Assembly: GCA_037478695.1 (NCBI GenBank)
Contig: JBBFME010000001.1
Coordinates: 1 to 56,522 of the forward strand
Length of the DNA: 56,522 nt
Direction: 5' to 3'
DNA from: Pseudothermotoga sp.
GTDB lineage: Bacteria > Thermotogota > Thermotogae > Thermotogales > DSM-5069
The notes under the pieces are model-generated. The model searched no databases, was not told the DNA's origin, and was given only the letters and a program-made list of their open reading frames with translations. The first letter of the stretch is position 1, and each line of letters begins with the position of its first letter. Shown here piece after piece: positions 1,458 to 35,356 of the stretch. A program made the translations under genes and the position numbers.

Positions 1458-2525
1458 GTGATCATAGTCCCAAAATACAAATTCATAGAACAGGCACTCA
1501 TAAAAGAACTGAAATCGGGAAGATACTCGGTTGGTGGGAAACTGCCCACTGAAAAAGAGTTGATGGAACAATACAATGCGAGTAGAGAGACCGTTCGTAA
1601 AGCTCTTGATAGACTCGCTGTCAGAGGTGTTATTGTTAGGAAACCTGGTGTTGGTACATTTGTGAACGCAGAGAGAGAAAATCAGACAGTTGGTATAGTT
1701 GTCCAACAGATCACCAGTTACATCTTTCCTTATGTGGTACTCGGAGCAGAAGATTATTTGTTCAGAAATGGCTACAAGATGTTGCTTGGGAACGCATCAG
1801 AAGACCCGAACAAGGAAAGACAGATAATCACCGAATGGGTTGAATCAGGCGTGAGTGGTTTGATAATTGATCCCGTTTGTAGTGCCACGAAACGTTCAAA
1901 CAAAGAATATCTTGAGTCACTAGTAAAAGATGGTATCAAGGTGGTCTTGGTACACAGTGACTGGAAGATTGGCGGTTGTGGAAGCGTGATATTAGATGAT
2001 GCCTTTGGGGGAATGAAAGCCGCAGAGATCTTCCACGAACACGGGCACAAAAGAGTCGCCGTTCTGTACAAATCTATTCATTTACCGAGTGTAACGAGGG
2101 CGATGAGTTTCATCGAAAGGGCAAGACAGCTTGGTTTTGAGAAGATTTACGAAAAGTCTTTCAACGTTTCTGAATTCACAGGAGCACCAATGCAGAGTGC
2201 GTATGAACTCTTGAGCATGCCTAACCAGTTGCGCCCAACAGCCATCTTCTGCTACAACGACGCTACAGCTTTGCAGCTTCAGCTCGTGGCAAAGAGACTG
2301 GGATTGAAGATACCAGACGATGTGTCGGTCATTGGCTTCGACGATGCACCAATTGGTGATTTCAGAGACTTTCTGACAACCTTTGCCCATCCAAAGGAGG
2401 ACGTTGGAAGAAAAGCTGTTGAAATCTTGCTGAAGATGCTTCATGGTGAGAAGGCAGAGAAATATGTTCTGCAACCCGAATTGATTGTGAGGAACTCAGT
2501 TGCTTTGATAAATCCTCGAAATTGA
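1458..2525 (+). CDS. araR: AraR-type repressor (GntR HTH fused to LacI-type sugar-binding domain)
   Basis: N-terminal GntR motif LPTEKELMEQYNASRETVRKAL..RKPGVGTFV; C-terminal LacI motifs AIFCYND and IPDDVSVIGFDD; adjacent to araD. Confidence 0.9.
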   Translation: MIIVPKYKFIEQALIKELKSGRYSVGGKLPTEKELMEQYNASRETVRKALDRLAVRGVIVRKPGVGTFVNAERENQTVGIVVQQITSYIFPYVVLGAEDYLFRNGYKMLLGNASEDPNKERQIITEWVESGVSGLIIDPVCSATKRSNKEYLESLVKDGIKVVLVHSDWKIGGCGSVILDDAFGGMKAAEIFHEHGHKRVAVLYKSIHLPSVTRAMSFIERARQLGFEKIYEKSFNVSEFTGAPMQSAYELLSMPNQLRPTAIFCYNDATALQLQLVAKRLGLKIPDDVSVIGFDDAPIGDFRDFLTTFAHPKEDVGRKAVEILLKMLHGEKAEKYVLQPELIVRNSVALINPRN

Positions 2526-2535
2526 GGTGATAAAG

Positions 2536-3174
2536 ATGTATGAGGCTGAAAAAAAGTTACTCTATGAAGCTCACATGACCCTTGAAAAATATGGCTTGGT
2601 TGCTTACACGAGCGGCAACGTGAGCTTGAGAATCGATGATAAAGTTATTATAAAGCCTTCTGGAGTTCCTTACTCTCTCTTGAAGCCAGCAGATATGGTT
2701 GTGGTTGACCTCCAAGGAGAAATCATCGAGGGAACCAAGAAACCATCGATCGATACCGCCACGCACCTCTATTTGTACAACCACCTTGAGTGGGCGAAGA
2801 GTATTATACACACTCATTCAACCTTTGCAACCACTTTTGCAGTATTGGGAAAAACAATACCAGTCTTGTGCACCGCACATGCCGATGTCTTTGGCGAAGA
2901 GATTCCAGTCAGTGAGTATGCACCTGTCGGTTCCGAAGCAATTGGAAAGGCTGTTCTGAAGGTAATAGGAAAGTCAGGAACGGTTTTGCTCAGAAAACAT
3001 GGTGTAATAGTTGTAGGTGAATCTTTGGATGATGCGTTGAAGAAAGCCATCTTTCTTGAGGAAGTCGCCAAGATGAGTTATTTCGTTTTTCTGAGGGAAA
3101 ACGTTGAACAGCTCGATACATCTGAGATCGATAGACTAAATCTTCAGTATCATACAAGATATGGGCAGAGATAA
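2536..3174 (+). CDS. araD: L-ribulose-5-phosphate 4-epimerase (class II aldolase family)
   Basis: SGNVS, IKPSG, PSID..TH, HTHS, LRKHG motifs and C-terminal YGQ. ATG 2536 preferred over GTG 2527 on RBS spacing. Arabinose gene context. Confidence 0.88.
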   Translation: MYEAEKKLLYEAHMTLEKYGLVAYTSGNVSLRIDDKVIIKPSGVPYSLLKPADMVVVDLQGEIIEGTKKPSIDTATHLYLYNHLEWAKSIIHTHSTFATTFAVLGKTIPVLCTAHADVFGEEIPVSEYAPVGSEAIGKAVLKVIGKSGTVLLRKHGVIVVGESLDDALKKAIFLEEVAKMSYFVFLRENVEQLDTSEIDRLNLQYHTRYGQR

Positions 3175-3667: not shown

Positions 3668-3728
3668 TTGTCTCACCCGGAGAGAAAAGTATAATTCAGT
3701 TGGAATGTACGTATCAATACGTATCTTA
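3668..3728 (+). promoter_or_regulatory. Promoter of ABC operon 1 with AraR-type operator(s)
   Basis: TTGTCT (3668-3673), 16 bp, TATAAT (3690-3695). GAATGTAC|GTATCAAT (3703-3718) overlaps a second TACGTA core (3713-3728). Confidence 0.65.
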
Positions 3729-3817
3729 TTTTTCGTCGTGCAACGGGGTAGGGAGACCAATCATAAGAATTCTTTGCACAAATGAAAGTTCATACATCAT
3801 CAGGGGGAGGTGTTGCT

Positions 3818-7116: not shown

Positions 7117-7164
7117 TTGACTTGTGACAAGTGCTTCGGTAGAGTCATATATGTTCGTACATAT
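7117..7164 (+). promoter_or_regulatory. Promoter of the GH127/HypD operon with AraR-type operator
   Basis: TTGACT (7117-7122), 17 bp, TAGAGT (7140-7145); near-perfect palindrome ATATGTTC|GTACATAT (7149-7164). Confidence 0.78.
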
Positions 7165-7213
7165 AACGGCACTTTTGTACCATCCGTTTCTATACTGAAA
7201 GGGGGCTAAGGTA

Positions 7214-8554
7214 ATGAGGGTTTCAAGGATCTTCACTGTTTGTGTCATTTTGCTTGTTCTCGCAGCCAGTGCTCTTGCAGCAAAGAAGGTCGAGTTAACT
7301 TTCACCTTTTGGGGTACCGAATTGGAAGCGAAAGTCGTTAGTGAAGCCTGTGAGAAATTCAACAAAACGCATCCTGATATCAAGGTCTCACCGATGCACA
7401 TTCCCACAAACTATATCGAGAAACTCACTGCAATGGTAGCCGCTGGTACTCCGCCACACATAGGATATCTGTACGAACCGAACGTTTTGGACTGGGCGTC
7501 GAAAGGTATTCTCTATGACCTGACTGAAGCGATCAGCCAGGATCCGTTACTTTCAAACAAATTGCCAGAACTCTATTGGAAATTCGACGGCGGTAAGAAG
7601 ATAGCAGGCATCACGGTTGCTGCTGAATTTATGATCACATACTACAACAAAGATTTGTTTGACAAGGCAAAGGTACCGTATCCACCCACAAAACCTGAGG
7701 AATGGACGTGGGAAAAGTTTGTTGAGACAGCCAAGAAGTTGACATTCGACAACAAAGGTAGAAGACCAGGTGAACCGGGGTTTGATCCGAACAATATTGT
7801 ACAGTACGGAGCTGTAATTCCATTGTGGTGGTGTCCGCTGATCCCGTTGATTTGGTCGAATGGTGGCGACATTGCCGATCTAACTGGTACCAAACCAATG
7901 ATTAATTCTCCTGAGACGATAGAAGCACTTCGCAAAATCTACGACCTGATATATAAGGATCATGCTGCTGCTCCACCCACTGTATCAGACGCGTTTCCGA
8001 GCACGAATATTGCTTTACAGACAGGGCAAGTCGCCATGGTCATCGATGGACAGTGGGCTATGCAAGAAGCAGGAGAAATGATCAAAGAAGGAACACTGAA
8101 TCTCGGCTTAGCACCACTACCGTATTTTAAGAAGCCTGTTACCGGAGTGATTGGTACTCCAATAGTCATTTTTAAGGATGCCGTTAAAGATCCAGATGTT
8201 CTCAAAGCAGCTTTGGAGTTCCACAAATTTATCCAAGACCCAGAGAATGTCTTGCCACTTATAAAATGTGGGTTGTGGCAACCTACAACCGTTGAATGGT
8301 ACACCAGAGATGATTACATAAAGAAATGGATGGATCCGAAACTACACCCAACTGAGTATAAAGAGGCTGTTATTAACTATTATCCGTATGCGAAAAAGTA
8401 TCCCGTGGCATATCTGAAGAATTCTGCTGAGATCAACACGATTTTTGGTCAGGAAATGACAAGAATTTTCTACGGAAACGAAGACATTGAAAAAGTGTGC
8501 AACGAGGCTGCTGAAAAATTGAAACCGTTGCTTACAGGAAGATATGATATGTAG
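7214..8554 (+). CDS. Sugar ABC substrate-binding protein, paralog 1
   Basis: Signal peptide; YYNKDLFDKAKVPYP, WTWEKF, AMVIDGQW (family 1 SBP). Confidence 0.9.
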   Translation: MRVSRIFTVCVILLVLAASALAAKKVELTFTFWGTELEAKVVSEACEKFNKTHPDIKVSPMHIPTNYIEKLTAMVAAGTPPHIGYLYEPNVLDWASKGILYDLTEAISQDPLLSNKLPELYWKFDGGKKIAGITVAAEFMITYYNKDLFDKAKVPYPPTKPEEWTWEKFVETAKKLTFDNKGRRPGEPGFDPNNIVQYGAVIPLWWCPLIPLIWSNGGDIADLTGTKPMINSPETIEALRKIYDLIYKDHAAAPPTVSDAFPSTNIALQTGQVAMVIDGQWAMQEAGEMIKEGTLNLGLAPLPYFKKPVTGVIGTPIVIFKDAVKDPDVLKAALEFHKFIQDPENVLPLIKCGLWQPTTVEWYTRDDYIKKWMDPKLHPTEYKEAVINYYPYAKKYPVAYLKNSAEINTIFGQEMTRIFYGNEDIEKVCNEAAEKLKPLLTGRYDM

Positions 8555-8624
8555 AACCGAACAAGTTGTTCAAGGGGAAATTGAGGACTCACAAACTTTG
8601 ACAAAATGATAGGAGGTGGATGTT

Positions 8625-9968
8625 GTGAAGTTAAGACTCGGCATAGTTGTTTTTCTCGTTATCGCTGTTCTCATTTCAGCAAAAACAGTTGAATTGAAGT
8701 TTGCATTCTGGGGAGATGAACTTGAAGCAAAGGTTGTGACTCAAGCTTGTGAGAAATTCAACAAAACACATCCAAATATCAAAGTGGTACCGATGCACAT
8801 TCCTCAGTATTTGGAAAAACTGTCAGCAATGATTGCATCTGGTGAACCACCGCACTTGGCATATCTTGTGGAAAGTCGTGCGCTCGGATGGGCTGCGCAG
8901 GGAATTCTTGTCGATCTAAACGAACTCCTCCAAAAGGATCCTGATCCAGTTATCATGAATAAATTACCACAACTGTACTGGAAATTCGATGGCGGCAAGA
9001 AGTTAGCAGGCGTTAGCTTTGCAGCCGAGTTTATGATCACATACTATAACAAAGATTTGTTTGACAAGGCAAAGGTACCATATCCTCCAACAAAACCTGA
9101 GGAATGGACGTGGGAAAAGTTTGTTGAGACGGCCAAAAAATTGACATTTGACAACAAAGGCAGAAGACCAGGTGAACCAGGATTTGATCCTAAAAACATT
9201 GTCCAGTACGGTGCGGCAATTGGTGGAGGAGGAACAAGCCCCTGGGTTCTGTACCCGTTGCTATGGTCGAACGGCGGGGACATTGTCAGTGAAGATGGAA
9301 AGCAAGTTATGTTAGATTCCCCGGCAACTGTAGAAGCCATTCAGAAGATATACAATTTGATCTACAAAGACTTTGCTGCCATAGCACCAGCAGCTGCAGA
9401 TGCCTTCCCAAGTTTGAATGTTGCTCTGCAAACGGGCCAGGTTGCGATGGTCCTTGATGGTCAGTGGGCTATGCAAGAGGCTGCACAAATCGCAAAAGAG
9501 GAGGGTATGAGATTTGGCGTGGCACCGCTTCCATACATGAAAACACCTGTTACTGGTGTAGAAGGTGCGCCAATTGGTATCTTCAAAGATGCTGTAAAGA
9601 ATGATCCAGAGGTGTTGCAAGCAGCTTGGGAATTCTACAAATTCATCCAGAACCCTGACCAGGTCGCTGATGTGATTAAAAGTGGTTTGTGGCAACCGAC
9701 TACGATCGACTGGTACACAAAAGAGGAGTACATAAGCAAGTGGCTAAACGCAGAAGTACATCCAAAGGAATACAGAGAAGCTGTGATAAATTACTACAAA
9801 TACGCAAAACCATATCCGAACGCTTATCTGAAGAACGTAGCAGAAATCAACACTATTGTCGTTCAGGAGATGAGCAGGATTTTCTATGGACAGGAAGATA
9901 TCGCTAAGGTCTGCAAAGAAGCGGCTGACAAGATTAAGCCTCTCTTGGCTGGAAGGTATGACAAGTAA
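8625..9968 (+). CDS. Sugar ABC substrate-binding protein, paralog 2 (tandem duplicate)
   Basis: AGGAGG RBS at 8611, GTG 8625; colinear with and highly similar to 7214..8554. Confidence 0.9.
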   Translation: MKLRLGIVVFLVIAVLISAKTVELKFAFWGDELEAKVVTQACEKFNKTHPNIKVVPMHIPQYLEKLSAMIASGEPPHLAYLVESRALGWAAQGILVDLNELLQKDPDPVIMNKLPQLYWKFDGGKKLAGVSFAAEFMITYYNKDLFDKAKVPYPPTKPEEWTWEKFVETAKKLTFDNKGRRPGEPGFDPKNIVQYGAAIGGGGTSPWVLYPLLWSNGGDIVSEDGKQVMLDSPATVEAIQKIYNLIYKDFAAIAPAAADAFPSLNVALQTGQVAMVLDGQWAMQEAAQIAKEEGMRFGVAPLPYMKTPVTGVEGAPIGIFKDAVKNDPEVLQAAWEFYKFIQNPDQVADVIKSGLWQPTTIDWYTKEEYISKWLNAEVHPKEYREAVINYYKYAKPYPNAYLKNVAEINTIVVQEMSRIFYGQEDIAKVCKEAADKIKPLLAGRYDK

Positions 9969-9985
9969 TTGTTGTCAATCTCACT

Positions 9986-10010
9986 CAAAGGGGGACCGTT
10001 CCCCCCTTTG
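9986..10010 (+). terminator. Intergenic hairpin between SBP and permease
   Basis: CAAAGGGGG-accgttc-CCCCCTTTG. Confidence 0.6.
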
Positions 10011-10037
10011 TTCTATGTGGAAGGGGTGTGAACAGAG

Positions 10038-10919
10038 TTGAGAAAATTTGAAACAAAGTGGGGTATAATGCTTGCTTTACCAGGAATTCTTGGATACTTT
10101 CTATGGGTACTTGGACCAACGATTGCCGCAATTTTCATGAGTTTCACGAATTGGTCGCTGGCTGGTCAACCTCAATGGATAGGTTTGGAGAACTATTCAA
10201 AACTGTTCAGTGATTTCATATTCAAGAAATCACTGTTTGTAACCTTTTACTATGCTATTGGCAGCGTTATTGTAAGTCTTCTTGTCAGCTTCTTTTGGGC
10301 GTTGTTGTTGAATGTGAAAGTTCCTGGAAGGTCTCTTTTTAGAACATTTTTCTTCATACCATCAATTACACCATCTGTAGCAGTTGCAATGGTGTGGCTG
10401 ACCCTATACCATCCTCAGTTTGGTTTACTCAATCACATTTTCAAATCCTTTGGTTTACCAGCGCTCAAATGGATCTACGATGAAAAACAAGTGATACCGG
10501 CATTCATTGTGATGAGTACCTGGACCATAGGTTACACAATAACGATCTTTCTTGCCGGATTACAAGGTATACCAGAATATCTCTACGAAGCAGCGATGCT
10601 CGATGGTGCTACTTGGTGGCACAGACTTCGTCATGTGACCATACCAATGATGACACCTACTATATTCTTCAACTTGCTCATGGGAGTCATAGGAGCATTG
10701 CAGGGGGGATTCACACAAGCGTACATCATGACCAGTGGTGGACCAAATTATGCAAGTATGTTCTATACATACTATATTTTTCTCAATGGTTTTCAATACG
10801 GGAAAATGGGATACGCTTGCGCTTTGTCGGTGATAATCTTTGTAATAATAATGATTCTGACTCTTATCATATTCAGAACATCTCGATACTGGGTCTATTA
10901 CGAAGCACTGCGAAAGTAG
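10038..10919 (+). CDS. Carbohydrate ABC permease
   Basis: FLAGLQGIPEYLYEAAMLDGA, TSGGP. Confidence 0.9.
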   Translation: MRKFETKWGIMLALPGILGYFLWVLGPTIAAIFMSFTNWSLAGQPQWIGLENYSKLFSDFIFKKSLFVTFYYAIGSVIVSLLVSFFWALLLNVKVPGRSLFRTFFFIPSITPSVAVAMVWLTLYHPQFGLLNHIFKSFGLPALKWIYDEKQVIPAFIVMSTWTIGYTITIFLAGLQGIPEYLYEAAMLDGATWWHRLRHVTIPMMTPTIFFNLLMGVIGALQGGFTQAYIMTSGGPNYASMFYTYYIFLNGFQYGKMGYACALSVIIFVIIMILTLIIFRTSRYWVYYEALRK

Positions 10920-10922
10920 TGT

Positions 10923-11780
10923 GTGGAGGTGTTAAGAGTGGTTCATTCAAAGAGAACGACCCTTCTCACTGGAAAGACTATTACCTTCGTTATCTTGGTT
11001 TTGGGTTCTGTTGTTTACCTGATGCCTTTTCTTTGGCTTCTAAGAAGTTCTCTTATGTCCTCAGGTCAGATCTTCAGAATGCCACTCGAGTGGGTACCAA
11101 AACCCTTCAGGTGGCAGAACTATCCTCAAGCTTTGACGGCAATGCCTTTTTTCAGATATCTGTTCAACACGCTGATTGTGTTATTTTTTGTAGAGGCAGG
11201 CACTCTATTAACGGCTCCTATGGCTGCTTTTGCCTTTTCGAGACTTCGCTGGCGTGGTAGAGATCTGTTGTTTTTCATAATCCTGACATCTCTCATGATA
11301 CCTTATGCTGTAACTTTAATTCCCACATTTATCTTGTGGAAATCTTTGGGTTTCGTAAATACCTACTTGCCACTGACCGTCCCGGCTTGGTTTGGTGGAA
11401 GCGCTTATTACATTTTCATGCTCAGGCAATTTTTCTCAGGACTGCCAATTGAACTCGATGAAGCAGCTTATCTTGATGGGGCAACGCCATGGCAAGTTCT
11501 GTGGAGAATAGTTGTTCCTCTTTCTAAACCTGCACTCATAACTGTGGCTGTGTTTACTTTTCTGGGTGTATGGGGAGACTTGATGGGACCAATCATTTAT
11601 TTGAATGATGCAAACAAATACACATTAGCGGTTGGTTTAACCATCTTTCGTGGTGCCTACAGCACCAAGTGGAATTTGTTGATGGCAGCTTCCTCGGTGA
11701 TTATGATTCCGCCGATCTTGATTTACTTCATTGGGCAGAACTACTTTCAACGTGGCATAGTTATGACGGGAATGAAATGA
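10923..11780 (+). CDS. Carbohydrate ABC permease
   Basis: LRQFFSGLPIELDEAAYLDGA, YTLAVGL. Confidence 0.9.
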   Translation: MEVLRVVHSKRTTLLTGKTITFVILVLGSVVYLMPFLWLLRSSLMSSGQIFRMPLEWVPKPFRWQNYPQALTAMPFFRYLFNTLIVLFFVEAGTLLTAPMAAFAFSRLRWRGRDLLFFIILTSLMIPYAVTLIPTFILWKSLGFVNTYLPLTVPAWFGGSAYYIFMLRQFFSGLPIELDEAAYLDGATPWQVLWRIVVPLSKPALITVAVFTFLGVWGDLMGPIIYLNDANKYTLAVGLTIFRGAYSTKWNLLMAASSVIMIPPILIYFIGQNYFQRGIVMTGMK

Positions 11781-11796
11781 TCAAAAAGGAGGTTGA

Positions 11797-13692
11797 GTGG
11801 CAATGGGAAAAAAGGTACCTGTTGATACACAGAAAAGTCCTTATGCATTTTTGGAAGGTTTAGAAATATCTGATGTTCACATTTCAGGCTTTCTTGGTGA
11901 TTACCTCGATCGAGCAGCCAATGTAACACTACCGAGTATGTATGAAATGCTTGAAAAGGAAGGAAGAATAGACAACTTGAGATTTGCCTCTGGTAAGAAA
12001 AAGGGTACTTTCAAAGGATTTCGCTTCAACGATACTGATGTACACAAATGGGCTGAAGCCGTTTCTTTTCTCTTTGCAACAAAAGTAGATACAAGGCTCG
12101 AAAAGAATCTCGACTCTGCTATTGAGGAAATCAGGGCAGCTCAAGACGAAGATGGTTATGTCGATAGTTATTATCCCAAAGATAAAAGAAATGAAAGATG
12201 GACAGATCTGGGATGGTCTCACGAAATGTATTGTGCAGGACATCTTATCCAAGCTGCCGTTGCACATAAAAGAGTCACTGGTAAGAATTCCTTACTCGAA
12301 ATAGCTAAGAGATTTGCCGATCATATCGATACTGTTTTTGGACCAGGCAAGAAACCCGAGTTGGACGGGCATCCCGAAGTCGAGATGGCGCTCGTCGAAC
12401 TTTACAGGGAAACCGGTGATGACAAGTATCTCAAATTAGCAGACTATTTTGTGCGAGCACGAGGTAGAGGCTATGCGAGCAGTTCAAAGTATCCTGGAAT
12501 AACCCGAGAATATTTCGTGGACCATAAACCGTTCATCGAACTGGACCAGGTTGTTGGCCACGCCGTGAGAATGTTGTACTTGTGCTGTGGGGCTGCTGAC
12601 TTGTATTTGGAAACCGGCGCAGAAGATCTCTGGCGTGCACTTGAGAGACTGTGGCATGATTTGGTCGAAAAGAAAATGTACATCACTGGGGGATGCGGAG
12701 CTCGAGCAGAAGGGGAAGCCTTTGGTAACGAGTACGAATTGCCAAACAAGAAAGCATACACAGAAACTTGTGCAGCAATTGCCAGTTTCATGTGGAATTA
12801 CAGAATGTTCTTGGCAACAGGTGATGCAAAGTATGTAGACATCATGGAGCAAGTACTATACAATGGACTGCTTTCAGGTATCTCCTTGGACGGAAAGCAT
12901 TATTTCTATGATAACCCACTCGAAAGCGACGGTACACACAGAAGAAAAGAATGGTTTGAATGTGCGTGTTGTCCACCAAACATAGCCAGGTTAATTACCT
13001 CTCTGCCTGGATACATATACTCTATGAAGAAGGATGGTTCAGCTGTTTTTGTCAATCTTTATGAGAAAAACACAGCTAACATCAGAACACGTTTTGGAAT
13101 GATGGCGCTGGCAATGGAAACAGATTATCCATGGTCTGCACAAGTGCAGATCCGTGTAGCAAGTTCACAAATCACGGACCCGGTGGCGATCTATCTGAGA
13201 ATACCAAGTTGGGCAAGAGATTTCTCGATAAAAGTCAACGGTCAAGATGTGAGCACCGAACCGCAGAATGGCTATGCGGGGATAAAAAGGATCTGGAAAA
13301 CAGGAGATTCTATAGATTTGTCACTTTCGATGCTCGTAGAGACGATTCAGAGCCATCCGTTTGTAGAAGAGAGCAGAGGAAAGGTTGCAATTAAGAGAGG
13401 ACCTATTGTCTATTGTGCAGAAGCCGCAGATAATGATTTTGAAGTTCGGGCATTAGGATTACCCAAAAATCCTCAGTTGCAAGTTCACTACAACAGCATT
13501 CCTGTTTTGGGTAAGATTGTTTCGATTTCAGGACAAGGTTTTGCTCAGGACATGAAAGACTGGAAAGGTGCACTCTATATACCCACGGAAAAACTGAAGG
13601 CGGATAAACCAGTTGAGGTGCGGCTCGTTCCTTATTATTCTTGGGCAAATAGGACTGCAGGACCAATGGTTGTGTGGGTAAGATCAATTTGA
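11797..13692 (+). CDS. GH127 beta-L-arabinofuranosidase (HypBA1/DUF1680 family)
   Basis: HEMYCAGHL, GHPEVEMAL, GHAVR, YTETCAAI and the Zn/Cys motif CACCPPN; no signal peptide, so cytoplasmic. Confidence 0.9.
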   Translation: MAMGKKVPVDTQKSPYAFLEGLEISDVHISGFLGDYLDRAANVTLPSMYEMLEKEGRIDNLRFASGKKKGTFKGFRFNDTDVHKWAEAVSFLFATKVDTRLEKNLDSAIEEIRAAQDEDGYVDSYYPKDKRNERWTDLGWSHEMYCAGHLIQAAVAHKRVTGKNSLLEIAKRFADHIDTVFGPGKKPELDGHPEVEMALVELYRETGDDKYLKLADYFVRARGRGYASSSKYPGITREYFVDHKPFIELDQVVGHAVRMLYLCCGAADLYLETGAEDLWRALERLWHDLVEKKMYITGGCGARAEGEAFGNEYELPNKKAYTETCAAIASFMWNYRMFLATGDAKYVDIMEQVLYNGLLSGISLDGKHYFYDNPLESDGTHRRKEWFECACCPPNIARLITSLPGYIYSMKKDGSAVFVNLYEKNTANIRTRFGMMALAMETDYPWSAQVQIRVASSQITDPVAIYLRIPSWARDFSIKVNGQDVSTEPQNGYAGIKRIWKTGDSIDLSLSMLVETIQSHPFVEESRGKVAIKRGPIVYCAEAADNDFEVRALGLPKNPQLQVHYNSIPVLGKIVSISGQGFAQDMKDWKGALYIPTEKLKADKPVEVRLVPYYSWANRTAGPMVVWVRSI

Positions 13693-13711
13693 ATTAGAAA
13701 GGGGAAAGTAA

Positions 13712-14797
13712 ATGAAAAGAGCCAAGCAATTAATCGATTATGTAAGATCCAACGTTCACAAGGATATAGATACAGTGATGATTTGGAACTATGAAAGCTC
13801 ATCAACAGCAAATACCTTCTACTTGTCCGGTTTTCGAGGTTCGTGCAGCATTCTGATAATTCGGGATGAATCCAATTACATAATCACTGATTCAAGATAC
13901 TTTGAACAAGCAGAACAAGAAAGCAACTTTGTTTTGGTCAAACACACTGGTGGCAAACTGACAAGAACTGTGGCGTCTTTTCTTAAGGAACTGTCTGCGC
14001 AATTCATAGGTTTCGAAGCAGAAAGACTTGACTGCAAGACTTATGGAGAACTGAGCGAAGAACTGAAAGCTAAGTTCATACCAGTAGATGACGTGCTCTA
14101 CAGAATGCGTTCCACTAAAAGTGAGGAAGAAATAGACAAAATACGTGCTGCGAGCAGAATAGCCGAACAGGCTTTTAGAGAAACCCTTAATCATATTAAG
14201 GAGGGTATATCAGAAATTGAGATTTGTGCCGAACTCGAATACAGGATCAAGAAATTAGGTGGACAAGTGGGGTTTGAAACTCTCATTGGTTCAGGACCCA
14301 GTACTTCAAAACCACATGTCAAACCCACGGCGAAAAAGATACGAAATGGAGAATTGATCTTGTTCGACTTCGGTGCGCGCGTTGACGGTTACTGCTGTGA
14401 TATAACAAGAATGGTGGTACTGGGGAAACCGTCTGTGGAGATGACTGAGTGTTACGAGTTGGTGAGACAATCTCTTGACAAAGCGACAAATGAAGGCAAG
14501 GCTGGGATGATCCCCAGTCGAGTCGACGAAGTAGCGAGGTCTGTTATTCTTCAGAGTAAGTACACTGAATACTGCTTCAAATACGGACTGGGACATGGTA
14601 TAGGACTCGAAGTCCACGAGGCACCCAGAATGGGGCCAACGTTTAATGAACCACTCCCAACCGGAGCGGTAGTAACGGTGGAACCAGGAATCTACATACC
14701 AGGGAAATTCGGCATCAGGATAGAAAACGATGTAATTGTCCGTGAAAATTGTTTTGAGAGACTCACAGATTTGAGTGAAGAGCTTGTCATGATCTAA
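13712..14797 (+). CDS. Xaa-Pro aminopeptidase/dipeptidase (M24B)
   Basis: Creatinase-like N-domain (TDSRY); metal ligands in FDFG, CDITR, GHGIGLEVHE, TVEPGIY, GIRIEND. Confidence 0.9.
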   Translation: MKRAKQLIDYVRSNVHKDIDTVMIWNYESSSTANTFYLSGFRGSCSILIIRDESNYIITDSRYFEQAEQESNFVLVKHTGGKLTRTVASFLKELSAQFIGFEAERLDCKTYGELSEELKAKFIPVDDVLYRMRSTKSEEEIDKIRAASRIAEQAFRETLNHIKEGISEIEICAELEYRIKKLGGQVGFETLIGSGPSTSKPHVKPTAKKIRNGELILFDFGARVDGYCCDITRMVVLGKPSVEMTECYELVRQSLDKATNEGKAGMIPSRVDEVARSVILQSKYTEYCFKYGLGHGIGLEVHEAPRMGPTFNEPLPTGAVVTVEPGIYIPGKFGIRIENDVIVRENCFERLTDLSEELVMI

Positions 14798-14822
14798 AAT
14801 GTAACCACAGGAGGTGGGTGGT

Positions 14823-17234
14823 TTGAAAACAAGTCTTGACAAAGAAATCGAGCGAAGACGCTCAAGTATAAAACCAGTGAGTGATCGAATTGAGAAGTTG
14901 AGAGAGGAGAGTATTCAAGCGAAAGAAAGAATATCTCTCGAGCGAGCAAAGTTGGTAACGGATTTTTACAGAACTAAAGCTCCGAAGAATGTTTCATACG
15001 CCGTTCTTCGTGCTATGGCTTTCAAATACCTCATGGAGAACTGTAGTCTCCCATTGGAAGAAGGTCAACTCATAGTTGGTATTCGAGGAACAGGACCAAA
15101 AGAGGTTCCAACATACCCTGAAATATGTGTTCACACACTTGAAGATCTCGATACACTCGCAACAAGAAAGAACATGCCATTTCAAGTTGATGATCAGGTA
15201 CGTGGCATTTACGAGCAAGAGATTATACCTTTCTGGCGTGGACAAGCGATGAGAGATATCATTTTCGAAAACATGACGCGGGAATGGAAAGACGCATATG
15301 AAGCGGGAATCTGGACTGAATTCATGGAACAAAGAGCACCTGGGCACACCTCTGGTGGTGGATGGATTTTCAGAACGGGTGTTTTGGATATAAAGAAGAG
15401 AATAAAGGAAAAAATCGACCAACTTGCTCCTTCAGATCAAGAATATTTTGAAAAACTTGAAGAACTCAAGGCCATGGATATTGCTTGCGATGCAATTCTA
15501 ATCTATGCAAGGCGATATAGTAAAAAATTGAAAGACCTCGCTGCGAACGAGCAAAATTTCCAAAGAAGGCAAGAACTCTTGAAGATGGCGGAGATCTGCG
15601 AAAAGGTCCCAGCGCATGCGCCAGAGAGTTTTTGGGAAGCTCTTCAACATTATTGGTTTATCCACGTTGGTATCACCTATGAGACTAATCCCTGGGATTC
15701 TTTCACACCTGGCAGATTAGACCAACATCTCTATTCATTCTATTCAAGAGATATAATGTCGGGTGCTTTGACCAGAGAAAGGGCAAAAGAACTGCTTCAA
15801 GCGTTTTGGATCAAGTTCAACAATCAACCATCGGTTCCAAAGGTGAAGATAACCGCCGAAGAAAGTTTTACCTACAACGATTTTTCAAAGATCAACATAG
15901 GTGGACTTAAGACAGATGGTTCTGATGCGGTAAATGATCTTTCCTATTTGATTTTGGAAGTACTTTCTGAAATGAGAACACTTCAACCGAACACAGCTGC
16001 TCTCATAAGTGATAAGAATCCTGATGCTTTCTTAATGAAAGCATTGGAAGCACTCTCTCCTGGTTTTGGTGAACCACCTCTTTTCAACTACGACAGGATA
16101 ATTGTAAAGATGTTGCGTCAAGGGAAGACGCTTGAAGATGCAAGAGAATCAGGTGTGAGCGGATGTGTCGAGACAGGTGCACTCGGTAAAGAAGCCTATA
16201 TTCTGACAGGTTATCTGAACATGCCAAAGATTCTGGAGATAACACTCAACGGTGGTATCGATCCACGAACAGGTAAGCGCATAGGCTTGGAAACACAAAT
16301 ACCACAGAGTTTCGATGACCTTTGGAGTTCTTTTGTGAAACAACTTCGATATTTCATAGATGTAAAGATGAAAGGCAATGACATCATAGAGGCCCTCTAT
16401 GCCAAGTATTTGCCTGTCCCTTTCATGTCTTTGTGGATTCAAGATTGTGTGGAGAATGCAAGAGATTATAATTCGGGTGGAGCTCGATACAACACTCAGT
16501 ACATTCAGTTCGTTGGCCTGGGGACTGTGACAGATTCACTTGCTTCTGTGAAGTGGAACGTTTTCGACAAGAAGCTTTTCACTTATCAAGAAGTTCTGAA
16601 AGCTTTGCGTGAAGACTTTCAAGGTTATGAACATATGAGACAGATCTTTCTGAACAAAACTCCGAAGTATGGCAACGACGACGATTATGCTGACAATATA
16701 GCTAAGAAACTTGTCGATGAAATTATTCGAATTGTGGAGAGTTATGCCCCCTCACCCATAAGAAAGGCGTCTCGAAGAGCTTATTTTCTTCCGACGACTG
16801 TTCACGTTTACTTTGGTAGTGTAACTGGGGCAACCTGCGATGGTAGAAAAGCTGGTATGCCTGTTTCAGAAGGTATCTCACCTGTCCAAGGCGCAGACAG
16901 AAAAGGGATAGCGGCTGTTTTCAATTCTGTCTGCAAGTGCGATTGGGACAAAACAGGTGGGGCATTGCTCAATCAAAAACTCACGCCCGATTTGGTACAA
17001 GATAATACAAATCTGACCAAACTTGGGAAACTCATAAGGACCTTTTTCAGAATGGGTGGACACCATGTACAGTTCAATGTAGTCTCTTCAGAATTGTTGA
17101 GAGAGGCCCAGAAAAGGCCAACGGATTTTCAAGACTTAATGGTGAGGGTTGCCGGTTACAGCGATTATTTTGTCAGTCTCCCTAAGGGATTGCAGGAAGA
17201 GATCATAGCGCGAACGGAGCAAGGTGAACTATAA
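14823..17234 (+). CDS. hypD: Glycyl radical enzyme, trans-4-hydroxy-L-proline dehydratase (HypD)-like
   Basis: Gly-radical loop LMVRVAGYS; Cys loop SGCVE; HypD-type segments EQRAPGH, NPWDSFTPGRLDQ, ES.TY.DF, EAYILTGY, LPTT.H.YFG (compared from memory). Single Cys rather than the CC of PFL. Start TTG 14823 or GTG 14814. Confidence 0.8.
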   Translation: MKTSLDKEIERRRSSIKPVSDRIEKLREESIQAKERISLERAKLVTDFYRTKAPKNVSYAVLRAMAFKYLMENCSLPLEEGQLIVGIRGTGPKEVPTYPEICVHTLEDLDTLATRKNMPFQVDDQVRGIYEQEIIPFWRGQAMRDIIFENMTREWKDAYEAGIWTEFMEQRAPGHTSGGGWIFRTGVLDIKKRIKEKIDQLAPSDQEYFEKLEELKAMDIACDAILIYARRYSKKLKDLAANEQNFQRRQELLKMAEICEKVPAHAPESFWEALQHYWFIHVGITYETNPWDSFTPGRLDQHLYSFYSRDIMSGALTRERAKELLQAFWIKFNNQPSVPKVKITAEESFTYNDFSKINIGGLKTDGSDAVNDLSYLILEVLSEMRTLQPNTAALISDKNPDAFLMKALEALSPGFGEPPLFNYDRIIVKMLRQGKTLEDARESGVSGCVETGALGKEAYILTGYLNMPKILEITLNGGIDPRTGKRIGLETQIPQSFDDLWSSFVKQLRYFIDVKMKGNDIIEALYAKYLPVPFMSLWIQDCVENARDYNSGGARYNTQYIQFVGLGTVTDSLASVKWNVFDKKLFTYQEVLKALREDFQGYEHMRQIFLNKTPKYGNDDDYADNIAKKLVDEIIRIVESYAPSPIRKASRRAYFLPTTVHVYFGSVTGATCDGRKAGMPVSEGISPVQGADRKGIAAVFNSVCKCDWDKTGGALLNQKLTPDLVQDNTNLTKLGKLIRTFFRMGGHHVQFNVVSSELLREAQKRPTDFQDLMVRVAGYSDYFVSLPKGLQEEIIARTEQGEL

Positions 17235-17236
17235 AA

Positions 17237-18133
17237 ATGCGCGCGCTTGTCTTTAACATACAGAGATTCTCCGTACACGATGGCCCCGGAATAAGAACAA
17301 CTGTGTTTTTGAAAGGGTGTCCTCTCTCTTGTCTATGGTGTCACAACCCAGAAGGCATATCTCCAAAGGCCGAACTGATGTGGGCGAAGTACAAGTGCAT
17401 ACACTGTGGGTCATGTATTGCTTCATGTCCAAATCACGCTTTGAGTTTTAATGGTGATCTCTTGATTCTGAGAAAGGATCAATGTACGCTTTGTGGAAGA
17501 TGTACACAATATTGCCCGACAACTGCTCTCAAGAGTGTCGGGCAGTTGATGGAACCAGAAGATCTCTTGAAGGAATTACAAAAAGACATAATGTACTTTG
17601 ACCAATCTGATGGTGGTGTAACCTTTTCTGGTGGTGAGCCATTGTTACAGAGCGAGTTTCTGTTGGAAGTATTACCCAAAATCAAATCACAAGGGATAAA
17701 CGTTGCCATTGATACCTCTGGTTATGTGAGCCAGGAATGTCTGGAAAAACTTCTGCCGTTTGTGGATTTGTTTTTGTATGACCTGAAGATCATCGACGAA
17801 GAGAAACACATCAGGTACACCGGTGTCAGCAACGGTGTGATAAAAGACAATCTGAGATTACTCATTGAAAAAGGAAAAAAAATAGTGATTCGCATTCCTG
17901 TGATACCATGTGTGAACGATTCACAACAAGACGTAGAAGACCTGTGCAACTTTTTGGCTTCACTCAACACCAGGCTGAAGATAGATTTGCTGCCTTATCA
18001 CAATGTTTCAGAGAAATACTCAGCACTTTGGAAAGAGTATAAAATGAGCAACTCAAAAGATATCAACAAGGCAGTGAAATATGTGGAAGGTAAAATAAGT
18101 TCAAGAGGCTTTCAAGTGAAAATTGGAGGATGA
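17237..18133 (+). CDS. Glycyl-radical enzyme activating enzyme (radical SAM)
   Basis: HDGPGIRTTVFLKGCPLSCLWCHNPE (CX3CX2C), ferredoxin insert with two CxxCxxCxxxC, SGGEP. Confidence 0.93.
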   Translation: MRALVFNIQRFSVHDGPGIRTTVFLKGCPLSCLWCHNPEGISPKAELMWAKYKCIHCGSCIASCPNHALSFNGDLLILRKDQCTLCGRCTQYCPTTALKSVGQLMEPEDLLKELQKDIMYFDQSDGGVTFSGGEPLLQSEFLLEVLPKIKSQGINVAIDTSGYVSQECLEKLLPFVDLFLYDLKIIDEEKHIRYTGVSNGVIKDNLRLLIEKGKKIVIRIPVIPCVNDSQQDVEDLCNFLASLNTRLKIDLLPYHNVSEKYSALWKEYKMSNSKDINKAVKYVEGKISSRGFQVKIGG

Positions 18134-18337
18134 AAATTCCAGTTTGTTTCTCATAATGAGAAAATTCATCTTCGAACTTGGATATCAGTTTCTACTCATT
18201 CGTGGTTTGCAAAGAAAATTCTATGTAAAAGACATAAAGATTACGAGAAATTCAAAGATACAATGAACAGGACAGAGCATCTCGTTGCTAATTGCTCCAA
18301 AAGCCTTGAATTACCTTGTTGAAGGCTTTCTTGCAGT

Positions 18338-18384
18338 TTGACAGGGAAGCCTTCATTGTTGATAATACTAATGTACGTACATAT
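18338..18384 (+). promoter_or_regulatory. Promoter of ABC operon 3 with AraR-type operator
   Basis: TTGACA (18338-18343), 17 bp, GATAAT (18361-18366); TAATGTAC|GTACATAT (18369-18384). Confidence 0.82.
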
Positions 18385-21690: not shown

Positions 21691-23079
21691 ATGATGCATG
21701 TTTGGCTGAAAAAGTTCATACAGATTAGTTTTCTCTTTTTCTTCCTGCTTGGTGGTGAGATAGGTATGGCTGTTGAAACGATAATCAATGTGAATTTGCA
21801 GAAATATCTGAAATCAATCGAGGAAAACAAAAAGTTGTCTGCGAGCATAATTGTTTTGGATGAAAACGGAAGATCGATGGCGGACGTGGAAGTGGAATGT
21901 ATCCAACTCACACATGAATTCTATTTTGGCAATGCACCAGAATATTTACTCTTTGCCTATGCACCCTATAGCTACAGGAGAGGAAACAGGTTCGGAACAA
22001 AGCCTCTACCCGAAGATCAACTGGATCAGTACAAAAAGCTTTATGTCGAGTTGTTCAATTATGCAACTTTACCAGCTTTTTACTGGTCAGATTATGAACC
22101 GGCTCCTGGCTTTCTGCCGTTGGTTGAGGCAATAAAGAAGATCGTCGAATGGTTGAATGAGAACAGAATCACCTCAAAAGGACACACCCTTGTGTGGGGG
22201 AATCCACCGAGCGTAGGTGTACCAGGATGGGTTGTGGCAAAAGGATCTGCAGGGGAATGGAAAGAAGTTCGTAATCTTCTGTACAACAGGGTAATTCGCG
22301 AAATGACTCAGTTCAAAGGCTTAATACAGATGTGGGATGTTGTGAATGAACCAATCGTTCAAAGGTGGTTTGACAATCTCTCACAAGACTACGTCATCGA
22401 AGCATACAGGCTTGCAAGAAAGGTTGACCCCAATGCGAAATTGATCTTGAACGAATTTGGTGTATTGACCAACAACGACACACGCCGTAGGTTTGTCAAC
22501 CTCGCCCGTAAATTGATTGAAGAGAATCTAATCGACATAATAGGTGTCGAGGCGCATATTTTCGACGCTCGAGATTTGAAGATGCAACTTGAGAATCTCG
22601 AAGGGATTTACACAGCCCTTGACGAGATAGCTGTTCTTGGAAAACCCATTCACATCACCGAATTTCAGATTCCCCTTCTGGCCGTTATTGAGGCTTTCAA
22701 TGTAGATGTAGAGACCGCCGAAAAACTGCAGGCAGAAATTGTTAAGATCTTCTACACGTTCTTTTTCAGCCATCCTGCTGTTGAGGTAATTGTGTACTGG
22801 AACTTTTATCGGGCCTGGCAACAAGGTAGTGGCTTCCTAAGGGATGATCTGACGATAAAACCGATGTACTATGTTCTAAAAGATCTGATTCATCGAGAAT
22901 GGAAGACATCTCTTAACATACGAACTGACCAAGAAGGAAAGGTGAGTTTCAGAGGCTTTCCAGGGACTTATGAGATAAGAGCAAAATATGATGATCAGGA
23001 AAAAATATTTAACATAACGGTGTCGAAAGGGAAGATCAATGATTTTACGGTGGTCTTTAATGGAAGTGGTGATAAATGA
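21691..23079 (+). CDS. GH10-like glycoside hydrolase (endo-1,4-beta-xylanase family), likely exported
   Basis: GHTLVW, WDVVNEP (acid/base Glu), IHITEF (nucleophile Glu); hydrophobic N-terminus; start uncertain. Confidence 0.78.
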   Translation: MMHVWLKKFIQISFLFFFLLGGEIGMAVETIINVNLQKYLKSIEENKKLSASIIVLDENGRSMADVEVECIQLTHEFYFGNAPEYLLFAYAPYSYRRGNRFGTKPLPEDQLDQYKKLYVELFNYATLPAFYWSDYEPAPGFLPLVEAIKKIVEWLNENRITSKGHTLVWGNPPSVGVPGWVVAKGSAGEWKEVRNLLYNRVIREMTQFKGLIQMWDVVNEPIVQRWFDNLSQDYVIEAYRLARKVDPNAKLILNEFGVLTNNDTRRRFVNLARKLIEENLIDIIGVEAHIFDARDLKMQLENLEGIYTALDEIAVLGKPIHITEFQIPLLAVIEAFNVDVETAEKLQAEIVKIFYTFFFSHPAVEVIVYWNFYRAWQQGSGFLRDDLTIKPMYYVLKDLIHREWKTSLNIRTDQEGKVSFRGFPGTYEIRAKYDDQEKIFNITVSKGKINDFTVVFNGSGDK

Positions 23080-35331: not shown

Positions 35332-35356
35332 TTGAAGATCAAGGGAGGCATAAACG

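Follow-up and report, generated by a model that had tools for sequence, protein, structure and literature searches.

The eight-gene cluster at positions 7214-18133 of a 56,522-nucleotide stretch of Pseudothermotoga sp. DNA (the window, meaning here the whole stretch that was analyzed) is likely a single arabinose-induced operon and, with a probability of roughly 0.77, serves the import and salvage of arabinosyl-hydroxyproline (Ara-Hyp) (glyco)peptides from the wall glycoproteins of plants or algae. In extensins and related glycoproteins from the walls of plants and green algae, Hyp-O-arabinosides form the linkage units. The cluster consists of eight plus-strand open reading frames encoding two solute-binding proteins (SBPs), two permeases, a GH127 glycosidase, an M24B peptidase, the glycyl radical enzyme (GRE) HypD and its activase (Table 1), separated in this order by gaps of 61, 69, 3, 16, 19, 16, and 2 bp. 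The co-oriented layout and tight spacing described in the first-pass annotation are thus borne out, with every reading frame in place and gaps of 2-69 bp; the gene identities it proposed agree with profile matches (Pfam and NCBIfam) and residue checks, and the link it drew between sugar removal and hydroxyproline (Hyp) use is supported. The source bacterium is probably heat-loving.

Table 1. Features of the cluster and of its surroundings in the window.
Feature	Position	Strand	Basis or remark
AraR-type repressor	1458..2525	+	PF00392 + PF13377; GntR head with LacI-type sensor
AraD, L-ribulose-5-phosphate 4-epimerase	2527..3174	+	NF005123, over cut-off
Candidate sigma-70 promoter	7117..7145	+	-35 at 7117-7122, -10 at 7140-7145; 9 of 12 match
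AraR-type 16-bp palindromic operator	7149..7164	.	Just downstream of the -10 box
SBP1, solute-binding protein family 1	7214..8554	+	PF01547; oligosaccharide-type fold; predicted Ara(n)-Hyp/glycopeptide binder
SBP2, tandem paralogue of SBP1	8616..9968	+	PF01547
GC-rich hairpin	9986..10010	+	Between SBP2 and the first permease
ABC permease 1, MalF-type	10038..10919	+	PF00528
ABC permease 2, MalG-type	10923..11780	+	PF00528
GH127 beta-L-arabinofuranosidase, HypBA1-like cysteine glycosidase	11797..13692	+	PF07944 (E 2.9e-112), PF20736, PF20737
M24B Xaa-Pro peptidase, prolidase/aminopeptidase P type	13712..14797	+	PF00557 + PF01321
HypD, trans-4-hydroxy-L-proline dehydratase (GRE)	14814..17234	+	NF043068, 1113.7 bits against a cut-off of 1100
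HypD activating enzyme, radical SAM	17237..18133	+	NF043069 is the best NCBIfam match, 384.5 bits, under the cut-off of 425
14-bp hairpin, candidate terminator	18320..18355	+	After the activase gene; z -3.5
GH51 alpha-L-arabinofuranosidase	23076..25505	+	PF22848/PF06964; apparent signal peptide (read by eye)
Non-canonical arabinose isomerase candidate (PF02952) and FGGY kinase	33904..36877	+	Pfam

The components of an AraR regulon were found together, namely a chimeric GntR/LacI regulator gene with a site of its own, a related palindrome at 1431, and a conserved 16-bp operator at or just behind the cluster promoter. The palindrome at 7149 is one of two window sites with at most two mismatches, against 0.06 matches expected from a control that is lenient in that its mismatch pattern derives from those very sites. 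It ranks second when the 2.18 Mb genome is scored with a matrix built from sites of relatives alone, agrees with 13 of the 16 bases of the Bacillus subtilis AraR consensus (as quoted in PMC1950556), aligns at the same position in all four genomes that hold the region (the relatives being G001, G004, and G005), and recurs in metagenome loci L114 and L115. Two other high matrix scores (C90:7311 and C82:2661) lie inside coding genes and were rejected as operators. Of the promoter with an AraR-type palindrome that had been proposed, the palindrome therefore stands, by its rank and its conservation in relatives, and the sigma-70-like site is present as a candidate, such matches being near chance level (41 found against 32.4 +/- 6.2 expected); G001 and G004 visibly preserve the -35/-10 spacing ahead of this operator. 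Comparative footprinting of the conserved operator supports the putative AraR-type control of the cluster. A candidate internal promoter before hypD (14771-14800, 9 of 12) shows no conservation in six related loci and was rejected as a chance-level match.

The surroundings resemble the Thermotoga maritima AraR regulon (TM0275-0285, including DUF1680/GH127 gene TM0280 and abfA), which likewise combines an AraR-type regulator, GH127, GH51, araD, and a kinase, and in which the DUF1680 gene is AraR-controlled and arabinose-induced (PMC3750489); the GH127 loci of relatives carry the same palindrome as the cluster. T. maritima, the control in our Thermotogota survey, differs in lacking HypD, and none of the 16 AraR rows in its regulon table lists a peptidase, GRE, or activase (PMC3750489, supplement file 1). 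Canonical AraA (PF02610) was not found in the Pseudothermotoga genome, and no solved relative was found for the isomerase candidate; the AraR regulon given in the PMC3750489 supplement includes an "araI". Within the cluster, a hairpin of differing sequence follows SBP2 in all seven loci compared and is likely an mRNA stabilizer or partial terminator that may reduce read-through, while the 75-nt SBP2-permease spacer as a whole folds no better than shuffles (z -0.65). Nothing comparable to the hairpin after the activase gene stood out in relatives. The GH51 gene belongs to the next unit with an AraR site, whose operator lies at 18369.

HypBA1, the closest model for the glycosidase, is known to act on Ara-Hyp. 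The GH127 protein of the cluster matches the structure 3WKW (E 1.1e-109), has no evident signal peptide, and keeps all 11 HypBA1 positions checked (H142, Y145, H192, H255, R258, E307, E323, C325, C389, C391, and C392). The HypBA1 Zn/Cys site (E322, E338, C340, C415, C417, and C418; roles from PMC10728902) is thereby present, and the substrate pocket residues R273, H194, H142, and Y145, which differ in GH146 (PMC10850190), correspond to R258, H192, H142, and Y145. A function as aceric acid hydrolase scores below threshold (NF049879, 532.5 against a cut-off of 950). GH127 enzymes are also active on arabinan and arabinogalactan ends (PMC10850190), and aglycone preference varies among members of the family (PMC6085000 and PMC10850190). 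The GH51 enzyme might remove the alpha-1,3 cap from Ara4-Hyp. The peptidase that follows GH127 resembles 2ZSG (E 3.2e-81) and scores under the cut-offs of both the PepQ and the YpdF-type models. Its residues D219, D230, H295, E324, and E338 reproduce what we take to be the D, D, H, E, E metal-ligand pattern of the M24B family. It is an extra copy in addition to the housekeeping gene, which adjoins efp; the paralogue on contig C33 is 46% identical.

SBP1 and SBP2 are 69% identical, and SBP1 falls in a distinct SBP subfamily. The structure model of SBP2 (pLDDT 94.6) has oligosaccharide binders as its nearest solved folds, at 25% identity or less, with the arabino-oligosaccharide binder AbnE as second-best structural match. 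Reading the ligand off structure was abandoned, all matches being that distant and spanning many sugars; searches with SBP0 and SBP3 were likewise uninformative, and an SBP profile search of viral contigs returned no relative. Plasmids of Priestia, Deinococcus, and Nonomuraea matched through permeases only, which are parts of other transporters, and were discarded. The cluster encodes no ATPase, and four MalK-type candidates lie on other contigs (PF17912, 4 matches).

Recurrence in other genomes, a prediction of the first-pass annotation, was found both in relatives and in three independent lineages. Among Thermotogota, gene order is kept in G001, G004, G005, and G007 (whose contig ends inside SBP2) and in metagenome loci L113, L115, and L116, with short gaps throughout, and HypD and GH127 lie together in six of the seven genomes that have both (151 genomes surveyed). 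In G143, HypD stays in the arabinose locus though GH127 is lost and the peptidase broken. The grouping of a beta-arabinofuranosidase with M24 and HypD recurs in two further HypD lineages, the peptidase subtype differing each time. Genome G122 has another order, GH51-GH127-long aminopeptidase P-HypD-activase-araR, in which the peptidase-HypD-activase block sits between GH127 and araR, themselves neighbors in G139 and G125; no AraR-type site was found in this cluster. Genome G463 (Anaerolineae) carries two SBPs, two permeases, GH146-like and GH127-like genes, PepP, and HypD; its SBPs and permeases match those of the operon best among all paralogues of the Pseudothermotoga genome, and no activase was found in 41 kb around its hypD. 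A single clade for the linked HypDs is rejected (p-AU 1.4e-5), and the three cluster peptidases share only 27-29% likeness. GH51 adjoins activase-hypD in two more lineages (L040 and L120). A locus of Paenibacillus cellulositrophicus (NZ_CP045296.1), outside the training set, carries the same SBP subfamily (WP_152404489.1; 552 bits, the next non-member scoring 264), permeases (51%), an Xaa-Pro peptidase, and a beta-L-arabinofuranosidase, together with two genes of the proline-racemase/Hyp-epimerase family, a DapA-family gene, an aldehyde dehydrogenase resembling KGSA dehydrogenase, and FAD/2Fe-2S oxidoreductases; judged by these gene families, its pathway is a non-homologous, oxidative hydroxyproline-type counterpart to HypD. 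Such recurrent convergence across lineages supports the import and salvage of Ara-Hyp (glyco)peptides. On balance, SBP1 and SBP2 probably represent an undescribed ABC importer subfamily for arabinosyl-Hyp glyco-amino acids or glycopeptides, and bacteria would have repeatedly joined this importer, or a beta-arabinofuranosidase, to a proline-specific peptidase and a Hyp pathway of their own, the radical HypD in anaerobes (in at least three separate assemblies) and an oxidative one in Paenibacillus.

The transporter genes could also be co-regulated with the Hyp genes without a common imported substrate. The transporter and GH127 would then handle only beta-arabino-oligosaccharides (beta-Ara2, or arabinan and AGP ends, as in Bifidobacterium longum), Hyp peptides would enter separately, and the peptidase, HypD, and activase would be under AraR because arabinose signals plant glycoprotein. 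This is unlikely, though the oligosaccharide-class SBP fold with AbnE as its second-best match would suit it, as would the SBP subfamily accompanying a beta-arabinofuranosidase, with no Hyp gene, in G062 and on Clavibacter plasmid pCI3, and the lack of a family-1 transporter in the examined stretch around the G122 cluster. B. longum itself imports beta-Ara2 and not Ara-Hyp (bioRxiv 2020.03.26.009860). An Opp-type system at 26172-32128 of the window is an example of a route by which Hyp peptides could enter under such co-regulation. In three of the five lineages with this SBP subfamily, on the other hand, the unit continues after the SBP with M24 and with genes for Hyp use, which belong to one of two unrelated pathways. 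Structure 6LCE, which we take to be the B. longum-type beta-Ara2 binder, also matches SBP2 only weakly (E 1.8e-8).

Far less probable is that a cassette of peptidase, hypD, and activase genes serving collagen-type or general Hyp peptides entered the arabinose locus in a single ancestor and is functionally unconnected with the sugar genes. Of the 80 closest distant HypD loci, 22 have an M24 match near HypD but neither GH127 nor GH146, so that peptidase and HypD can be a module of their own, and the nearest outside HypDs neighbor amino-acid transporters, proline racemases, or Opp systems. In those same 80 loci, many of them short, GH127 or GH146 was found near HypD in none. The two genes also lie apart in most genomes that have them: outside the Thermotogota they adjoin in one of 38 sampled genomes, making the cluster rare, with 0/6 in Clostridia (among the matches listed; 22 further matches were weak), 1/25 in Anaerolineae, 0/6 in a Bacteroidota-centered sample, and 0/1 in the archaeal sample, where both are on one contig but separated by 14.5 kb that include another cassette. 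The Anaerolineae figure is roughly what chance allows (about 0.15 expected, by hand estimate), so G463 counts for its architecture and not toward the tally. G827, with GH127 14.5 kb away, and G520, with isomerase/araD 8 kb from hypD and dnaK-type genes between, were not counted as clusters, and the hypD regions of Enterococcus and Parabacteroides (two of nine records) held no arabinosidase. Against a chance landing stand the three separate HypD lineages with three peptidase subtypes and the oxidative counterpart in Paenibacillus, the lack of promoter conservation in the 16-44 bp that precede hypD in related loci, and the preservation of gene order among relatives despite GH127 identities of only 64-88%.

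HypD of the cluster, which probably starts at TTG 14823 and not at GTG 14814, matches 6VXC (E 2.2e-272). Its G781 aligns with G765 of the reference HypD, presumably the radical site. All 14 active-site residues are kept (F170, R174, H178, W294, D295, K343, S351, D356, F357, C451, E453, Y467, T661, and G781), as mapped by alignment from the reference set F152, R156, H160, W277, D278, K326, S334, D339, F340, C434, E436, Y450, T645, and G765 (list from PMC7077986). The activase passes the cut-off of TIGR02494 and is filed as a GRE activase, cognate by position, with a CX3CX2C motif at 28 and two CX2CX2CX3C motifs (auxiliary 4Fe-4S). That the GRE has moved to a sugar or polyol, to another Hyp isomer, or to Ara-Hyp itself, eliminating arabinose in place of water, is the least probable reading of all, because, although HypD passes its cut-off narrowly, its activase falls short of its own, and the enzyme sits in a long-branched thermophile/archaeal clade for which no assay was found in the accessible literature, every residue that contacts or positions Hyp in 6VXE is identical, GREs for other Hyp isomers and sugars score far lower (HplG 7VUA 363 and YbiW 391 against 909 bits), and GH127 would be redundant if the GRE itself eliminated the sugar.

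Under the salvage reading, AraR would sit on the palindrome over the start site and be released by arabinose, as the B. subtilis and T. maritima systems suggest. SBP1 and SBP2, with the permeases and a shared MalK-type ATPase, would take up Ara(n)-Hyp or peptides of the Xaa-Hyp(Ara) type, a ligand suggested by gene neighbors only. By analogy with HypBA1, GH127 would take off beta-arabinofuranose and free the Hyp 4-OH, the M24B peptidase would release Hyp from Xaa-Hyp bonds, and HypD, activated by the radical SAM enzyme and placed in its family by profile and residues, would dehydrate free Hyp to P5C. Arabinose would pass to the nearby isomerase, kinase, and AraD, and P5C probably to proline by ProC or to ornithine by ornithine aminotransferase.

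The first-pass annotation had envisaged complete anaerobic catabolism, with Hyp being fermented, and neither is borne out: the operon ends at P5C, and neither a P5C dehydrogenase over cut-off nor ornithine aminomutase was found in this genome, the latter exceeding its cut-off only in G122 (one of five genomes). A TIGR01237 match (287 against 660) was dismissed as a generic aldehyde dehydrogenase among sugar genes. Ornithine cyclodeaminase was found in none of five genomes, nor was proline reductase (PF09338), for which the control set was silent too. ProC (contig C19) and ornithine aminotransferase are encoded elsewhere in the genome and proB was found in 0/18 family genomes, which makes proline or ornithine the probable destination of P5C, and salvage with a small electron sink fits better than full amino-acid fermentation. 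We rejected a selective link of the operon to the loss of proB, since none of those 18 genomes has proB, whether or not they carry HypD, and ornithine aminotransferase with ProC could yield proline from ornithine.

Every enzyme family in the operon is already known, and no published description of a GH127, M24B, and HypD operon was found in the literature; the recycling route is likely undescribed. Like the B. longum JCM 1217 locus BLLJ_0208-0213, which encodes an SBP, two permeases, HypBA1 (GH127), HypBA2 (GH121), and HypAA (GH43), the operon pairs a sugar-type ABC importer with an intracellular GH127 for extensin beta-arabinofuranosides and keeps the catalytic and binding residues of HypBA1. 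B. longum, however, cuts off and imports beta-Ara2, leaving Hyp outside, whereas here the unit continues after GH127 with peptidase, HypD, and activase, the SBPs fall in a different subfamily, and no GH43 Pfam match was found among the 45 window proteins scanned. Xanthomonas euvesicatoria removes arabinose stepwise from Ara4-Hyp to Hyp with XeHypBA1, XeHypBA2, and XeHypAA, and a broken prolyl peptidase gene adjoins xehypAA (accessible parts of PMC6085000), but this is a plant-pathogen system with a GH146 enzyme, for which those parts mention no linked Hyp-catabolic gene. The Clostridioides difficile HypD/HypD-AE/P5CR system (6VXC and 6VXE) shares the enzyme family, the active site, and the adjacent activase, while in the window no proC adjoins and HypD follows the genes of a sugar importer and a glycosidase, with an AraR-type site ahead of them, instead of having a Stickland setting. 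Aerobic hydroxyproline operons (Pseudomonas, Sinorhizobium, and Streptomyces) employ an epimerase, D-Hyp dehydrogenase, deaminase, and KGSA dehydrogenase, unlike the oxygen-sensitive radical route of the window, and the accessible literature on them showed no tie to a beta-arabinofuranosidase; the P. cellulositrophicus locus pairs these families with the transporter subfamily of the window, M24, and a beta-arabinofuranosidase. Published bacterial systems thus treat the sugar only (Bifidobacterium and Xanthomonas) or free Hyp only (HypD and the aerobic hyp operons), and the operon joins both halves.

A review of HypD calls its role in most anaerobes unclear (PMC6219649) and already names plant extensin as a source of HypD substrate, without this operon (Fig. 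4 legend). The present analysis points to a possible function of HypD beyond gut collagen and Stickland metabolism and proposes a ligand for an SBP subfamily that is unannotated and has no solved relative above 25% identity. Heat stability is to be expected of the operon enzymes, and substrates of the Ara(1-4)-Hyp type have already been described. If the salvage reading is correct, arabinose would control a glycyl radical enzyme together with part of the supply of proline in a family in which no proB was found, and a recycler of the linkage residue of extensins and related Hyp-rich glycoproteins in anoxic hot habitats would have been identified.

The eight co-oriented genes of the operon occupy the positions given by the first-pass annotation; every one is on the + strand, and the intervals between them are 61, 69, 3, 16, 19, 16 and 2 bp. 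Pfam and NCBIfam matches bore out their identities as two family-1 solute-binding proteins (SBPs), two permeases, a GH127 with three domains, an M24B Xaa-Pro peptidase, a glycyl radical enzyme (GRE) and a GRE activase. The GRE scores above the NCBIfam cut-off for HypD, the dehydratase of Hyp (trans-4-hydroxy-L-proline), and the top NCBIfam family of the activase is the HypD activase, at a score below that family's cut-off. The cluster is real, conserved and preceded by an AraR-type site, and it lies within a 35-kb arabinose locus comprising araR, araD, three more ABC systems, two GH51 genes, a GH10-like gene, an isomerase and a kinase. HypD is present in four of seven same-genus genomes and in one sister genus, whose contig is too short to show gene order; the order is retained in all four HypD-bearing congeners, the contig of one (G007) stopping within SBP2. 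Three of five metagenome loci carry the cluster, in another (L114) a perfect operator accompanies araR and an SBP, and the fifth is unrelated; congeners and metagenome loci represent one lineage and were counted once. Close homologues of SBP2 (92-93%) are labelled in their source records as Pseudothermotoga, a genus of thermophilic anaerobes. A hairpin 3' of SBP2, found in 7/7 loci, may raise the SBP level or reduce read-through, and comparison of related loci revealed no conserved promoter upstream of hypD. SBP1 and SBP2, encoded in tandem, are identical over a long stretch (about residues 136-193), and in alignment the variants of that stretch follow the genome and not the paralogue, which suggests gene conversion between the two genes. 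The family also has a second type of GH127 locus (L099, L102 and L110, in G002, G011 and G007), combining GH127 with divergent GH127/146-like, GH116-like, GH38-like and MGH1-like genes.

Coordinates of the operon and of related or neighbouring features (window positions unless a locus is named)
Feature	Position	Strand	Description
Operon	7214-18133	+	Two SBPs, two permeases, GH127, M24B peptidase, hypD, activase
SBP1/SBP2	7214-9968	+	Tandem SBP genes
AraR-type palindrome	7149-7164		Begins 3 bases past a candidate -10 box
Region upstream of SBP0	3175-3781		AraR-type site degraded relative to congeners G004 and G005
Strongest AraR-type site	18369		By position, would govern the GH10-like and long GH51 genes
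GH10-like and long GH51	21658-25505		GH10-like protein (closest 8B73, E 2.4e-42); GH51 with CBM4/9-like and extra domain; apparent signal peptides on both
Opp-type transporter	27148-32128		Resembles the archaeal system below
Isomerase	33904-35331		PF02952 only, no solved relative; second copy (55%) on contig C6
597-aa protein	44295-46088	-	No Pfam match at 1e-5; P-loop-like GDSGAGKS motif; by eye, taken to be a candidate divergent PEP carboxykinase
Paenibacillus cellulositrophicus cluster	L147:11860-25236 + L154:915-3212 (NZ_CP045296.1, 801056-815211)		Same SBP subfamily, permeases, two-component system upstream
Decayed G122-type cluster (G143)	L098:1600-3460		GH127 deleted, HypD and activase intact; aminopeptidase P with internal deletion and frame breaks
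G463 hypD	L118:15961-19285, L119		Followed by HAD hydrolase, URO-D-like gene, sulfatase, ADP-ribosylglycohydrolase-family gene
Anaerolineae MAG locus	L040:2798-12370		GH51 alpha-arabinofuranosidase directly 5' of (M24)-activase-hypD
Clostridia locus	L120:7094-12359		As L040
Archaeal contig (G827)	L149 (G827:C38:1-19000), L087		Opp-type transporter, then GH127; racemase-hydantoinase-HypD-activase cassette 14.5 kb beyond GH127

The single promoter with an AraR-type palindrome proposed for the operon stands as far as the palindrome goes, the promoter match being weak (41 sites found vs 32.4 +/- 6.2 expected). The palindrome aligns at the same position in congeners G001, G004 and G005 despite divergent flanks, and with a matrix trained solely on relatives' sites it ranks second in the genome, four of the top five sites falling within the arabinose locus. 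Related palindromes also precede araR and other units of the locus, and relatives lacking HypD carry the same motif at their GH127 loci (L100, L101 and L106). The operon's palindrome agrees at 13/16 bases with the Bacillus subtilis AraR consensus as given in PMC1950556, and the Thermotoga maritima DUF1680 gene TM0280 is listed as an AraR regulon member, with 61- to 161-fold induction of TM0280-abfA and araA on arabinose (PMC3750489, in the parts consulted). From site conservation, genome rank, consensus match and the T. maritima regulon, we infer AraR control of the operon, which appears well founded.

Of the HypBA1 positions compared, the GH127 retains 11 out of 11; among these are the nucleophile C417, the residues that bind Zn and the GH127-specific pocket, to which we take H270 of HypBA1 to belong. 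HypD is closest among solved structures to 6VXC (909 bits; next GRE 503) and keeps 14/14 active-site residues. The HypD residue list comes from passages of PMC7077986, and the GH127 residue roles from passages of PMC10728902 and PMC10850190. All metal ligands are present in the M24B peptidase, an additional copy whose housekeeping paralogue (46%) adjoins efp. Since the arabinose chain sits on the 4-OH that HypD eliminates, sugar removal would have to precede the HypD step, and since HypD binds the carboxylate and amine free, peptide-bond cleavage would also be required; the enzyme set thus fits a chemically coherent scheme of deglycosylation and peptide cleavage, then HypD.

The expected recurrence of GH127-type, M24 and HypD genes in other genomes was borne out, both in relatives and in separate HypD lineages. 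Among 151 Thermotogota genomes, HypD occurs in 33, GH127 in 39 and both in seven, six of which have them together. In G122, from another order of Thermotogota, the arrangement is GH51, GH127, a 593-aa aminopeptidase P, HypD, activase and araR; in its relatives G139 and G125 GH127 lies immediately 5' of araR, so that the peptidase-HypD-activase block was gained or lost at the GH127/araR junction. G463 (Anaerolineae) has two SBPs, two permeases, GH146-like, GH127-like, PepP-type M24 and HypD genes in that order, and its transporter genes find their best match among the paralogues of the window's genome in those of this operon. Linked HypDs occupy three places in both trees (FastTree, 108 rows; IQ-TREE quick, LG+G4, 31 selected rows), and a single clade for them was rejected (AU test, p 1.4e-5; group chosen by gene neighbours, with L098 placed outside the group). 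The GH51-linked loci L040 and L120, the former from a MAG in which GH127 is absent, are a possible alpha-arabinosidase variant of the sugar-Hyp link.

The most telling case of recurrence is that of Paenibacillus cellulositrophicus, found with Clavibacter through the SBP subfamily. An SBP2 search of the plasmid collection returned three records, and a profile built from 73 SBPs, from which both proteins were absent, scored P. cellulositrophicus at 552 bits and Clavibacter at 387 (other SBPs <=264). In P. cellulositrophicus, the SBP and permeases are followed 3' by an Xaa-Pro peptidase, an FAD oxidoreductase and two proline-racemase/Hyp-epimerase-family genes and, further on, by a DapA-family gene, a KGSA-dehydrogenase-like gene, 2Fe-2S and FAD subunits and a GH146-like beta-L-arabinofuranosidase, without HypD. 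The gene-by-gene assignment of this set to the oxidative Hyp pathway is our presumption. None of its Hyp-type genes exceeds the curated Hyp-specific cut-off (epimerase 367 vs 376); the set agrees with the pathway outline in section 5 of PMC6219649. The cluster is likely an aerobic twin of the operon. Across five lineages with the SBP subfamily, a beta-arabinofuranosidase is adjacent in 5/5, and M24 and a Hyp pathway as well in 3/5. Paenibacillus/Bacillus SBP homologues at 33-39% are many, and may mark further such loci.

These observations make import and dismantling of arabinosyl-hydroxyproline the preferred reading of the cluster, at a probability of roughly three in four. Its main rival, sugar-only import plus co-regulation, is unlikely. 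Several points were counted against the arabinosyl-hydroxyproline reading: in compared genome G062 and in Clavibacter pCI3, transporter and beta-arabinofuranosidase occur without Hyp genes; GH127/GH146 enzymes also act in arabinan and arabinogalactan breakdown (PMC10850190, in part); the predicted SBP fold, by structure comparison, indicates no particular ligand; no activase gene lies in the 41 kb around the G463 hypD (L118, L119); no AraR-type site was found at the G122 cluster; and the arrangement is uncommon. No GH127/GH146 occurs near the 80 closest distant HypD loci within the DNA examined, 22 of which have M24 matches of some kind. Among genomes with both genes, adjacency was seen in 0/6 Clostridia (281 sampled), 1/25 Anaerolineae (201), 0/6 of a Bacteroidota-centred sample (191) and 0/1 archaea (111), with GH127 E-value limits varying from 1e-15 to 1e-60 and many genomes fragmented. 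The thermococcal hypD loci L021 and L024, with ornithine-cyclodeaminase-family and proline-racemase-family genes and a sodium symporter, represent by gene content a different Hyp context within the same HypD clade.

Every part of the operon belongs to a known family; what appears not to have been described is their combination and the ligand proposed for the importer. No description of a GH127-peptidase-HypD cluster was found in the open literature (subscription journals and RegPrecise lay outside the search; prior notice is possible), nor any open-literature paper joining HypD and hydroxyproline with GH127, HypD with arabinofuranosidase, or Pseudothermotoga with hydroxyproline. In the parts consulted, a review of HypD has a figure legend in which extensin is given as a source of Hyp in the gut, and also points out a clade of thermophile/archaeal HypDs (PMC6219649), a 2026 GRE review links Hyp use to collagen (PMC13450708), PMC4454575 mentions GH127 for extensin without HypD alongside, and the Bifidobacterium longum system is covered by bioRxiv 2020.03.26.009860.

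On the arabinose side, no canonical AraA was found in the window's genome, where the PF02952 isomerase likely substitutes for it; this is probably the 'araI' predicted as such an isomerase in the relevant part of PMC3750489. The 'complete' catabolism first proposed was not borne out for this organism: the operon's last product is P5C and, in this genome (93.5% complete), P5C dehydrogenase is below cut-off and ornithine aminomutase and cyclodeaminase were not found. In the five genomes searched, P5C dehydrogenase above cut-off and ornithine cyclodeaminase are each 0/5, proline reductase gave no match (its positive control being equally silent), and ornithine aminomutase occurs only in G122, where catabolism might be complete by way of ornithine. 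Because proC is present, ornithine aminotransferase is above cut-off here and in 4/4 congeners tested, and other exits were not found, P5C would most likely yield proline and ornithine, ProC most likely acting as a minor sink for NAD(P)H. With proB not found in 18/18 family genomes and proA not found in 5/5 (controls detected), proline in this family may derive from ornithine or from salvage.
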